A stretch of 64,000 nt of DNA from an uncultured Rickettsiales bacterium (GTDB lineage Bacteria > Pseudomonadota > Alphaproteobacteria > Rickettsiales > SXRF01). Position 1 is the stretch's first letter. Each line of letters starts with the position of its first letter. Under the pieces are notes generated by a model. The model was not told the DNA's origin and made no database searches. It worked only from the letters and a program-made list of their open reading frames with translations. Positions 10,306-61,587 of the stretch are shown here, piece by piece. The stretch covers positions 634-64,633 of the forward strand of contig CAZYBO010000003.1 of NCBI GenBank assembly GCA_964645205.1, read 5' to 3'. Position numbers and translations under genes: made by a program.

Positions 10306-10326
10306 GAATAATGAAGATTTTATGAC
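10306..10326 (-). promoter_or_regulatory. direct-repeat promoter box (Pho-box/OmpR-like), orphan operon 8737-10255
   Basis: The minus strand reads GTCATAAAATCTTCATTATTC, then 18 nt, then TAGAAT (10282-10287). The box is 50 nt upstream of the ATG. Confidence 0.45.
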
Positions 10327-28482: not shown

Positions 28483-28487
28483 AGGAA

Positions 28488-28517
28488 CATCCCTCCCCCT
28501 TATGCGGGAGAGGGATG
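28488..28517. repeat. solo family C-type hairpin (C4) between convergent FliK-like and curlin-like genes
   Basis: CATCCCTCCCCC-TTATGC-GGGAGAGGGATG, a 12-bp stem with one mismatch. Candidate bidirectional terminator. Confidence 0.6.
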
Positions 28518-28525
28518 AATAGGAC

Positions 28526-30382
28526 TTACTTCTGCACTACCGTCATCACGTTGCCGTTACCGGTCTGCAATACGTTAGCGTTGTTAAAAGTACCGAACTG
28601 CGAGATCGAGACATTATTAAGCATCCCCACCTGCTGGATCGAAGCGAGGTTGCTCATACCGTCCTGGTGGATGGAGGCGATATTCTCCGCACCGTCCTGC
28701 ATCAGACTTGCCTCGTTGAAATCCCCGCGAACTTCGATGCCTGCAACTTCGGTGCTGCCAGCCTGCCTTACTTTTGTTTTATTATCATTACCGGTGATCG
28801 CTACATTTGCCGTGTTACCGCCACCCAATATTTTCATATCGGTGATATTACGGTTACCGATCTGCCTGATCGTATCTTTGTTGTTATAGGCGGCTTCAAC
28901 CACCACGGCCTTGCTTGTCGCATCGGTAAGCGCATCGGTGGCCGCTACGTTGCCGTCACCGGTTTGTTCAAGCGTAAACGCGTTGGCAGTGGCATAGACG
29001 GAAGAATGCCAGACGCCACCCGTATTGCCGTTGCCTTTCTGGGCGATGGTCACGTCATTCGTGCTAACGGAATAGTCCCACTGGCGAGTCCTGAAGTCGG
29101 TGTTGCCTTCCCACGCGATAGCGCTGTTGTTGCTGCCTTCCTGGGTAACGTTCGTGATGCCCCAGAGACCAAGCTGCTTGACGCTGGCTGAATTGTTGTC
29201 GCCGCCCTGCTGAAGAATATTTGCGACGTTCACCCCCTTATCAAGCATGACAACGTACGTGTCGTAACCGGACTGTTCGATAGCAGCCGCGTTATTATTG
29301 CCGTGTTGCGTAATTTTTCCCTGATCCTGATAGGCGAACGAGTTGATAGCAGCACTGTTGGTATTGCCGATTTGCTCAATGCTGGCACTCATGTCACGTT
29401 CAGAGTCTCCATAACCCAAGCGCCCCTGCGTAATACGCGCGCCGTTATTATCGCCCATGATCACAATACTGCTACGCATGTTACTGAACAAATCACGAGT
29501 ACTTCCGGATAATATTGAAGAATTATTACCTGAACCCAATATACTGGTTGTGCTTGTAGTATTATTTGCGATCTGAAGATTAATACTAGAGTTTGAATTG
29601 CCGTATTGACTGAAGTTAATACTGCTATTGGCTCCTACAACAGCAACCGATGCATCATTAAAATTTCCATATTGCTCAAACTGAACCTGAGAATTACTAC
29701 TACCCCCATTAACTCGTGCTTTATTATTTTCTCCTATCTGACTAGCCAAGACGCTATTATTGTCGCCGCTATTTTCTACATATTCCATCGTGTTTGAAAG
29801 CCCTGACTGTGCGGCTTTTATGCGATTATTGTTACCAAATGTAGCAGCGTTCATAATGTTACCATCGCCTTGCTGCGTCAGGTCAAGGCTATTGTTCGTA
29901 CTGATAGGTTCATTATCATGCGGGAAAAAGTGTCTAACTCGCGCATTCAGCTTGTTTCCCGCACCATCCTGCTTTATGGCCACGGTGTTTGCGTTGCCTT
30001 TGACATCCACATCAACCTTATTAACATCTGGAAAAAATCCGTGATAATTCTGCGTAACTGACGTTTGGTTGTCGTTGCCCGCTTGCGACGCATTCAGCCT
30101 GTTTATGCCGGTGCCAGACGTTTGCGAGGCGGAAAGCGTATTACGGTTGCCCTCCTGCGTACCGCCGATGAAATCGTAGTTAGACGGAAAACTGCTTTCA
30201 TTGATCTGCTCGATACTGGCGACGTTACCGTTACCCGTCTGCGTGAACGGCGTAACCGGGACACCCGGTAAGGGAAGTCCCTGATTAACGCCTCCCACCG
30301 TGGCGGCGTAAGCAGGTATAATCGTAACAAAAGCAGAAACGGTCAGGATTGCCGTGGTGGTAAGCAGGGTACGCGTAAGCAT
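28526..30382 (-). CDS. secreted curlin-repeat (CsgA-like) protein, 618 aa
   Basis: Signal peptide ending AYA. About 30 units of G-x-x-N-x-(A/S)-x-(I/V)-x-Q counted by eye, e.g. QDGMSNLASIQQVGMLNNVSISQFGTFNNANVLQTGNGNVMTVVQ. Confidence 0.8.
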   Translation of the reverse strand: MLTRTLLTTTAILTVSAFVTIIPAYAATVGGVNQGLPLPGVPVTPFTQTGNGNVASIEQINESSFPSNYDFIGGTQEGNRNTLSASQTSGTGINRLNASQAGNDNQTSVTQNYHGFFPDVNKVDVDVKGNANTVAIKQDGAGNKLNARVRHFFPHDNEPISTNNSLDLTQQGDGNIMNAATFGNNNRIKAAQSGLSNTMEYVENSGDNNSVLASQIGENNKARVNGGSSNSQVQFEQYGNFNDASVAVVGANSSINFSQYGNSNSSINLQIANNTTSTTSILGSGNNSSILSGSTRDLFSNMRSSIVIMGDNNGARITQGRLGYGDSERDMSASIEQIGNTNSAAINSFAYQDQGKITQHGNNNAAAIEQSGYDTYVVMLDKGVNVANILQQGGDNNSASVKQLGLWGITNVTQEGSNNSAIAWEGNTDFRTRQWDYSVSTNDVTIAQKGNGNTGGVWHSSVYATANAFTLEQTGDGNVAATDALTDATSKAVVVEAAYNNKDTIRQIGNRNITDMKILGGGNTANVAITGNDNKTKVRQAGSTEVAGIEVRGDFNEASLMQDGAENIASIHQDGMSNLASIQQVGMLNNVSISQFGTFNNANVLQTGNGNVMTVVQK

Positions 30383-30440
30383 GGTTTCCTCACAAAAATA
30401 AATTTACATAGTATTCGCCTTAAACCTAAGCCTACTCTTG

Positions 30441-30460
30441 GTTTGTGACCGTTTCATGAC
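30441..30460 (-). promoter_or_regulatory. direct-repeat promoter box upstream of the curlin-like gene
   Basis: The minus strand reads GTCATGAAACGGTCACAAAC, about 60 nt upstream of the ATG. No good -10 at the 17-nt spacing. Confidence 0.35.
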
Positions 30461-30598
30461 GCTCGCGTGAACTTTTTGTTACAAGGTAGCGCATGCAGTT
30501 TCGTGCACCTTCTATATTAATACAGCGATGGAAAGATGCGGGGACGTACAGAGATTTCCCTGTATTTTTCACCCGTCAGGCGCTAAATCGTTAAGCCT

Positions 30599-34632: not shown

Positions 34633-34877
34633 GGTATTTCCTGCGTTATTAGGGTTATTTGCCTTAACTGCCGCCTATTCTAGCGTATTTCGTCGCCCGC
34701 ACGCATGAAGATTTTGTGACAAAAAATCTGGCTGTTTTTCAGTATTATGCCCCCTTGCCAGGGTAATGCGGGCGGAGGGCATGCCGCCCTTCACACAATT
34801 GTCATATATATCCCGTTGAAACAGGGTAATAATTACGATAATTTGAGAGGGTAGAGGCATTTACAAGGCGGATAGGC

Positions 34878-61567: not shown

Positions 61568-61587
61568 GATAATGACGATTTCATGAC
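61568..61587 (-). promoter_or_regulatory. direct-repeat promoter box, orphan gene 61066-61536
   Basis: The minus strand reads GTCATGAAATCGTCATTATC, then 17 nt, then TATAAT (61545-61550), which ends 8 nt before the ATG. Confidence 0.45.

Follow-up and report, generated by a model that had tools for sequence, protein, structure and literature searches.

The curlin gene and its locus

We analysed a 64,000-nt stretch of contig CAZYBO010000003.1 from an uncultured Rickettsiales bacterium (referred to below as the window), in which a gene on the minus strand encodes a 618-AA protein built of curlin repeats. The genome to which it belongs (G000) comprises 2.17 Mb in 14 contigs and is 99.3% complete; the gene lies on contig C3. 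The open reading frame (ORF) originally predicted at 28526-30382 is intact. Its 1857-nt frame (618 codons) is uninterrupted, the preceding in-frame stop lies only seven codons before the ATG, and a ribosome-binding site (RBS) stands directly upstream (Table 1). The signal peptide proposed for the product also held up. Read from the sequence, MLTRTLLTTTAILTVSAFVTIIPAYA/AT at the N-terminus shows the n-, h- and c-regions typical of Sec signal peptides and lacks a lipobox Cys. In the AlphaFold2 (AF2) model residues 2-15 are helical and are followed by a linker of low predicted local distance difference test score (pLDDT). Signal peptides of the genome's five other curlins, described below, align with this N-terminus. 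Asn makes up 13.6% of the protein, which is also rich in Gly, Ser, Ala, Thr and Gln.

The gene occupies an AT-rich islet between the flagellar cluster and ispB, as had been noted from the window, with a GC content of 0.41-0.53 vs. 0.57-0.64 in the flanks. The GC content at third codon positions (GC3) is 0.548, which places the gene in the lowest 3% of the long ORFs of the genome (median 0.714). The Asn-rich composition as the sole cause of the AT-richness was ruled out, since GC3 itself is low. Eight relatives, belonging to seven genera, have flhG, the fliK-like gene and ispB side by side, leaving a gap of only 8-97 nt between fliK and ispB. The corresponding gap in G000 measures 2116 nt (window 28483-30598) and contains the curlin gene on the opposite strand. 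As the junction is empty in these relatives, the curlin gene is a lineage-specific insertion. Two relatives from different genera carry other opposite-strand genes at the same junction, for a 484-AA leucine-rich-repeat protein in G042 (L036 4262-5716, minus strand) and for a 110-AA secreted protein in G021 (L025 5476-5808, minus strand), and the fliK-ispB junction appears to be a hot spot at which accessory genes insert.

The stop codons of the convergent fliK-like and curlin genes are separated by a hairpin, as the original prediction had it. The hairpin has a folding energy of -26.4 kcal/mol (z = -3.95), lies 5 nt beyond the stop of the fliK-like gene and 8 nt beyond that of the curlin gene, and is terminator-like. 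Its assignment to a "C-type" repeat family did not stand: no second copy was found in the G000 genome at up to 6 mismatches, and a hairpin with a sequence unique at that threshold could not be placed in any family.

Family assignment, repeats and predicted structure

A Pfam search confirmed the curlin-repeat signature. Curlin_rpt (PF07012) matched the 618-AA protein in 11 stretches with 110.6 bits (E = 3.2e-32), the gathering score of the family being 20.7 bits, and it was the sole Pfam match; autotransporter barrel, RTX and other secretion domains are absent. Autocorrelation of the sequence with BLOSUM scores, expressed relative to 300 shuffles, gave z = 10.5 at a lag of 11 residues, 8.1 at 22 and 7.2 at 33, with a harmonic also at 44. 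The number of repeat units varies with the method of counting: 10 units fit the strict motif G-x-x-N-x-[AST]-x-[IVLMFA]-x-Q, about 26 are detected by a self-trained 11-mer hidden Markov model (HMM), and the AF2 model has 44 strands. The earlier figure of about 30, counted by eye, was a fair one. Many of the middle units are degenerate. The most canonical repeats are found in the C-terminal 100 residues or so, with five of the ten strict matches falling within residues 531-606, and this part of the protein is presumed to be a docking or templating end.

Sequence comparisons place the gene product in the CsgA/CsgB-type curlin-repeat family. It scored below the cutoff of both NCBIfam equivalog models, with 107.8 bits vs. 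160 for CsgA (NF007470) and 109.2 bits vs. 165 for CsgB (NF007506), so that it is not assignable as either the E. coli-type major (CsgA) or minor (CsgB) subunit. The best match among sequences of the PDB, obtained with phmmer, was 8C50 (E = 2.9e-23), the cryo-EM structure of Pontibacter korlensis CsgA R15.5 (PMC10192328). E. coli CsgA (8ENQ) was matched weakly (E = 0.006).

The structure was predicted with AF2 from an alignment of 20 rows, consisting of the 618-AA protein, its 664-AA paralog, two operon curlins and 16 database curlins. The model (mean pLDDT 70.2, predicted template modelling score 0.69) consists of the signal helix followed by a continuous series of 44 strands of about 7 residues each. 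Four-residue arcs make up 32 of the 43 strand connections, and successive strands are most often spaced 11 residues apart, from which a stack of about 22 curlin-like strand-arc-strand rungs is predicted. Nine connections are longer (residues 61-93, 113-120, 150-164, 295-301, 322-330, 371-385, 427-442, 461-467 and 482-501); these insertions span 7-33 residues, most of them with low pLDDT. A Foldseek search of the model against the PDB returned nothing significant, 8C50 included, the best matches being generic beta-helices (E = 0.24). The two-sheet beta-solenoid geometry suggested for the protein is therefore drawn from the pattern of secondary structure together with the sequence homology.

Curli genes elsewhere in the genome

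According to the original prediction the gene was without csg assembly genes nearby. This is correct for the window, in which csgG, csgF, csgE and csgH gave no match. It does not extend to the genome: the only CsgG and CsgF matches of G000 lie at the start of contig C2, in an operon with three further curlin genes in the order cur200-cur321-cur170-csgF-csgG (Table 1). Although this operon lies at a contig edge, it is probably complete, because the equivalent operon of the relative G056, which is near-complete in two contigs, ends at csgG with nothing CsgH-like downstream. Two more curlin genes, for a 664-AA paralog on contig C1 and for a 314-AA protein distant from the operon on C2, bring the genome to six curlin genes at four loci. 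With csgG, csgF and other curlins present on other contigs, the orphan aspect of the 618-AA gene is removed.

The curlin directly upstream of csgF is small (158-172 AA) and has only a few repeats, its middle being rich in Lys and Glu and its tail acidic. It is conserved in G000 (C2:1833-2345, minus strand; L011), G017 (L038 1594-2112, minus strand) and G056 (L037 5549-6025, minus strand), and may be the functional analogue of the CsgB nucleator in this family.

Table 1. Features of the 618-AA curlin gene (window coordinates) and of the curli genes on contigs C1 and C2
Feature	Position	Strand	Basis and remarks
GC-rich hairpin with 12-bp stem	28488..28517	.	Between convergent fliK-like and curlin genes; T-rich tail on minus strand
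CDS of 618-AA curlin-repeat protein	28526..30382	-	ORF, Curlin_rpt, 11-residue periodicity, AF2, phmmer match to 8C50
C-terminal ~100 residues (519-618), most canonical and most conserved repeats	28529..28828	-	Motif matches, identity profile
Predicted Sec signal peptide, codons 1-26	30305..30382	-	MLTRTLLTTTAILTVSAFVTIIPAYA; cleavage expected after AYA
RBS GAGGAA	30386..30391	-	3 nt 5' of curlin ATG; read from sequence
Candidate -10 hexamer TAGGCT	30429..30434	-	10 nt downstream of box; suggested by sequence and recurrent geometry
Direct-repeat promoter box GTCATGAAACGGTCACAAAC	30441-30460	-	Core GTCATGAAACGGTCAC at 30445..30460; position weight matrix (PWM) score 19.6
Weak second box GTAACAAAAAGTTCAC	30467..30482	-	PWM 12.1; 22 nt upstream of first box
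csgG	C2:325-1371	-	CsgG profile, 162.7-163.9 bits
csgF	C2:1407-1823	-	28.0 bits (genome search), 28.8 bits (translated protein); cutoff 25.8
170-AA curlin with Lys/Glu-rich linker	C2:1833-2345	-	csg operon
321-AA curlin	C2:2468-3433	-	csg operon
200-AA curlin	C2:3526-4128	-	csg operon
664-AA curlin paralog	contig C1, L012 5846-7840	+	Same signal peptide and same ...VQK C-terminus
314-AA sixth curlin	C2:382721-383665	+	Distant from csg operon

A promoter box common to the curlin loci

The direct-repeat promoter box originally pointed out upstream of the gene is present, and the same box recurs at all curlin loci. Its core, GTCAY-N6-KTCAY, occurs four times in the window vs. 0.56 times expected, and 63 times in the G000 genome, in 47 cases with an A/T-rich spacer. 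Most core sites are intergenic and face the downstream ORF, and a -10-like hexamer, (TGn)TAnnnT, follows 7-10 nt after box sites. The consensus of the box, TTGTCAYAAAAC-TTCAY, is found at about 45 intergenic promoters of the genome.

All four curlin transcription units (4/4) have the box upstream, with PWM scores of 19.6-33.2. The box of the C1 paralog (PWM 33.2) lies about 90 nt before the ATG. The csg operon has two boxes, both with PWM 28.5 and 23 nt apart (C2:4234/4211), and the 314-AA curlin gene two with PWM 31.7 and 29.1, 22 nt apart (C2:382592/382614); the tandem arrangement of the boxes of the 618-AA gene resembles both of these C2 promoters. If about 3% of promoters carry a box, the chance of finding one at all four curlin units is about 1e-6, which is a rough estimate and not a formal test. 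In genomes of two other genera the box likewise precedes the csg operon (G017) and the curlin-csgF-csgG operon (G013). At the G017 gene for a 670-AA curlin, the ortholog of the C1 paralog, there is only a degenerate look-alike, TGTAATAAAACATTAAT, which we do not claim as a site. By sequence, then, the box appears to be an activator-site-like element common to all curlin loci.

The other sites in the window are at 10311-10326, 34705-34720 and 61572-61587 (all on the minus strand), and further sites in the genome include C1:63614, C2:380324, C3:95669/95717, C5:69515 and C8:68989. The site at C2:380324 (minus strand) belongs to an opposite-strand gene for a 652-AA protein, about 2.3 kb from the 314-AA curlin gene with its tandem boxes (C2:382592-383665, plus strand). 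When six genes downstream of boxes were scanned against Pfam, 3/6 had no match. Apart from the curlins, products of box genes mostly lack a Pfam match, one being a TPR protein and one a ResIII helicase.

The box consensus resembles the Pho box, CTGTCAT-N4-CTGTCAY. G000 encodes a PhoB equivalog, and nine full-length regulators of the OmpR/PhoB type are present. A classical Pho regulon was considered and rejected: the best site at the pst operon (pstB) has PWM 4.6, the pstS-like gene and phoU have none, and that of phoB is weak (11.0). Sites at Pho genes thus score at most 11.0 vs. 19.6-33.2 at the curlin loci. The phosphate-uptake genes themselves are scattered, with the sole PBP_like_2 (PstS-like) gene at C3:113956-114981 (minus strand), phoU at C2:353689-354393 (plus strand) and pstB at C3:305359-306102; the PstS-like gene and phoU each stand isolated from pstCAB.

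Tentatively, the box may define a regulon of about 45 promoters under an OmpR/PhoB-type activator. The curlins, CsgG/CsgF and dozens of lineage-specific proteins without Pfam match would then form a surface-remodelling or contact programme, in which fast-evolving giant curlins at insertion hot spots such as the fliK-ispB junction would serve as variable fibres or adhesins. We regard this extension as possible, though on balance doubtful.

Relatives, conservation and co-occurrence with CsgG

An exhaustive phmmer search of 1.84 billion representative proteins returned 730 curlin-type matches. Only two of them were below E = 1e-30, the 664-AA paralog on C1 and the 670-AA protein of G017. Over their full length these two share 43% identity and on this ground are probably orthologs, and the 618-AA protein is 31% identical to each. 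A word-indexed homolog search gave generic curlins only and missed the C1 paralog, and a search of genome contigs with the 618-AA protein found no related loci. The sequence comparisons thus present the protein as a divergent paralog with no known ortholog, in a subfamily of three members at E < 1e-30. Beside the C1 paralog lie, divergently oriented, three tandem prepilin-type genes (N-terminal GFTLLEM; L012 3217-5668, minus strand), and a Fur-family regulator gene follows it.

Conservation is concentrated at the two ends of the protein. Identity to the paralog and its ortholog is 46-52% over residues 1-50 and 44-56% over residues 551-618, vs. 18-34% over residues 101-450. When all six G000 curlins are aligned, their signal peptides, first repeat (GN.N.A.IEQ) and last repeats line up, and residues 444-617 match the entire 200-AA operon curlin with 37% identity.

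The closest homologs of FlhA, with 72-85% identity, all come from metagenome-assembled genomes (MAGs) labelled as Rickettsiales, Alphaproteobacteria or Pseudomonadota bacterium. The host clade is one of uncultured alphaproteobacteria represented by MAGs only; family genomes are mostly 1.6-2.7 Mb in size. Among 44 of them CsgG is present in 19 and Curlin_rpt in 16. CsgG is present in every curlin-bearing genome (16/16), and Curlin_rpt gave no match in the 25 genomes that lack CsgG (0/25). As these genomes are kin, the co-occurrence is descriptive and not a statistical test.

One family genome, G013, has an operon on its contig C5 (L040 2307-6427, plus strand) that consists of the box, a gene for an 819-AA curlin (Curlin_rpt, 98 bits), csgF (81.8 bits) and csgG (179.9 bits). 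The 819-AA giant is the only curlin in this csgFG operon, which indicates that giant curlins can be the operon-encoded partner of the channel. The operon also offers a natural minimal system for giant-curlin secretion.

Role of the 618-AA protein

We consider that the 618-AA protein is probably a Sec-exported accessory giant curlin of about 22 predicted rungs, secreted by CsgG/CsgF and co-regulated with the curli genes; most likely it is an extra subunit of an ordinary multi-gene curli system. This builds on what was observed directly, namely the family and repeat architecture of the protein, the presence of csgG and csgF, the common box, the insertion history of the locus and the co-occurrence of curlins with CsgG. 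Transcription would start from the activator-dependent direct-repeat-box promoter, in common with the csg operon and the remaining curlin genes, and the protein would cross the inner membrane by Sec and then be secreted unfolded through the CsgG/CsgF channel of the outer membrane. Outside the cell it would fold into the stack of strand-arc-strand rungs and polymerise, or co-polymerise with smaller curlins, via the conserved canonical terminal repeats, and a variable exposed surface would be made up of the diverged repeats of the middle with their insertions. CsgG-dependent secretion has comparative support, from the restriction of the family's curlins to CsgG-bearing genomes and from the giant in the csgFG operon of G013; like co-regulation and the formation of fibres or amyloid, it is inferred.

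Several results weigh against this assignment. Neither CsgE (PF10627) nor CsgH (NF041112) gave a match in the G000 genome, and no recognised nucleator was found there. The 618-AA gene, at its fliK-like/ispB junction on C3, is unlinked to csgGF, its GC3 is atypical, and the phmmer search yielded no ortholog among the 1.84 billion representatives. The box marks about 40 unrelated genes as well, which indicates a common regulon and no dedicated curli switch. Confidence of the AF2 model is only moderate, its Foldseek search was null, and regular stacking could be impeded by the many repeats that are degenerate and interrupted. As regards the first of these points, csgC, csgD and csgE are lacking in Alphaproteobacteria, where the absence of CsgH as well is less usual, though not unique (PMC3521004).

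The degenerate middle repeats, with their nine insertions of 7-33 residues, would also fit an accessory curlin that does not polymerise, i.e., a CsgG-exported monomeric beta-solenoid of about 10 nm that caps, branches or decorates the fibres of the operon curlins or acts as an adhesin. Canonical, conserved repeats are confined to the termini, the resemblance of the C-terminal 170 residues to the whole 200-AA operon curlin fits docking, and the gene is lineage-specific and fast-evolving, as in a variable surface protein. Yet the giant of G013 is the sole curlin of its operon, so that giants apparently can be a main subunit, and a solenoid fibre subunit is the published prediction even for CsgA homologs of the degenerate class with insertions (PMC10192328). 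We therefore rate a non-polymerising role as unlikely. Quite improbable is an orphan in the strict sense, with a periplasmic or other export route independent of CsgG/CsgF and a function apart from curli, even though the gene entered the genome on its own at an insertion hot spot, unlinked to csg genes, a CsgE-type adaptor was not found in G000, and recognisable export genes are missing from some alphaproteobacteria with curlins (PMC3521004). The whole-genome search located CsgG and CsgF on C2 and two more curlins elsewhere, all loci sharing the promoter box; curlins of the family are confined to CsgG-bearing genomes, and the protein has no secretion domain of another kind, its Pfam match being to Curlin_rpt only. 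The orphan reading of the original prediction does not hold beyond the window. Among CsgA-bearing genomes in general, only 2% are without CsgG (PMC10192328).

Loss of function would account for the GC3 at the 3rd percentile, the lack of an ortholog, the mere 31% identity to the nearest relatives and the many degenerate repeats, if the gene were a recently inserted paralog heading for loss, whose repeats no longer fold or assemble. Such a decaying duplicate is the least credible of the alternatives, as the 1857-nt frame, RBS, box, signal peptide and terminator are all intact, the 11-residue register is kept over the full length and the termini are conserved. We accordingly retain the accessory giant curlin of a multi-gene curli system as the preferred assignment of the 618-AA protein.

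What appeared to be an orphan amyloid gene is one of six curlins whose CsgG/CsgF channel is encoded elsewhere, and the outcome is mainly a clean-up of annotation. 'Orphan' curlins are best judged on the whole genome and on common regulatory motifs. The common box offers a starting point from which to look for the regulator and for the condition that triggers fibre production. The two giants of G000, the giant of G017 and the single-giant operon of G013 are natural material on how repeat number and degeneracy relate to curli assembly.

Comparison with known curli systems

Like the curli of E. coli and Salmonella (csgBAC-csgDEFG, type VIII secretion), the G000 system combines curlin subunits, a CsgG lipoprotein channel and CsgF in one genome, and the pathway we propose, from Sec through CsgG to extracellular polymerisation, is the same. 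In agreement with the original prediction the protein is several times longer than E. coli CsgA, with 618 AA and about 22 predicted rungs vs. 151 AA and 5 repeats. Unlike in E. coli, there is no CsgE match, the six curlin genes are spread over four loci, and the box is common with about 40 other promoters. At the csg locus of G000 no gene for a CsgD-type regulator was seen, no search for CsgC or CsgD having been made. With the CsgH curli systems of alphaproteobacteria (Dueholm et al. 2012, PMC3521004) G000 shares the class context, the lack of csgE and large CsgA homologs; it differs in having no CsgH match (NF041112), and the G056 operon ends at csgG.

CsgA homologs have 4-62 repeats, with secondary maxima at 15 and 22, and reach up to 30 copies per genome (PMC10192328). 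The long CsgA homologs of this curliome resemble the 618-AA protein in PF07012 and in the strand-arc-strand repeat, in which two 11-residue motifs with N/Q ladders combine to about 22-23 residues. In the family these are strand motifs of the form N-x-psi-x-psi-x-Q, connected through short X-G-X-X arcs, an architecture that the 618-AA protein shows. The Sec signal and the multi-copy genomes are likewise shared, and about 22 repeats correspond to a reported secondary maximum. A 'degenerate' class of CsgA with insertions in arcs or strands is known, with examples from Sediminicola and Roseovarius (Sleutel et al. 2023, PMC10192328), and is matched by the nine connection insertions found here. The 618-AA gene departs from the curliome in its position outside the csg operon, the lack of an ortholog, the strongly degenerate middle and its MAG-only clade. 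Long CsgA homologs, many copies, degenerate repeats and CsgE-less alphaproteobacteria are thus already documented (PMC10192328, PMC3521004). Mildly new are the combination of CsgE and CsgH both not being found, the fliK-ispB junction as a hot spot of insertion, and a promoter box common to scattered curlin loci and about 40 other genes.

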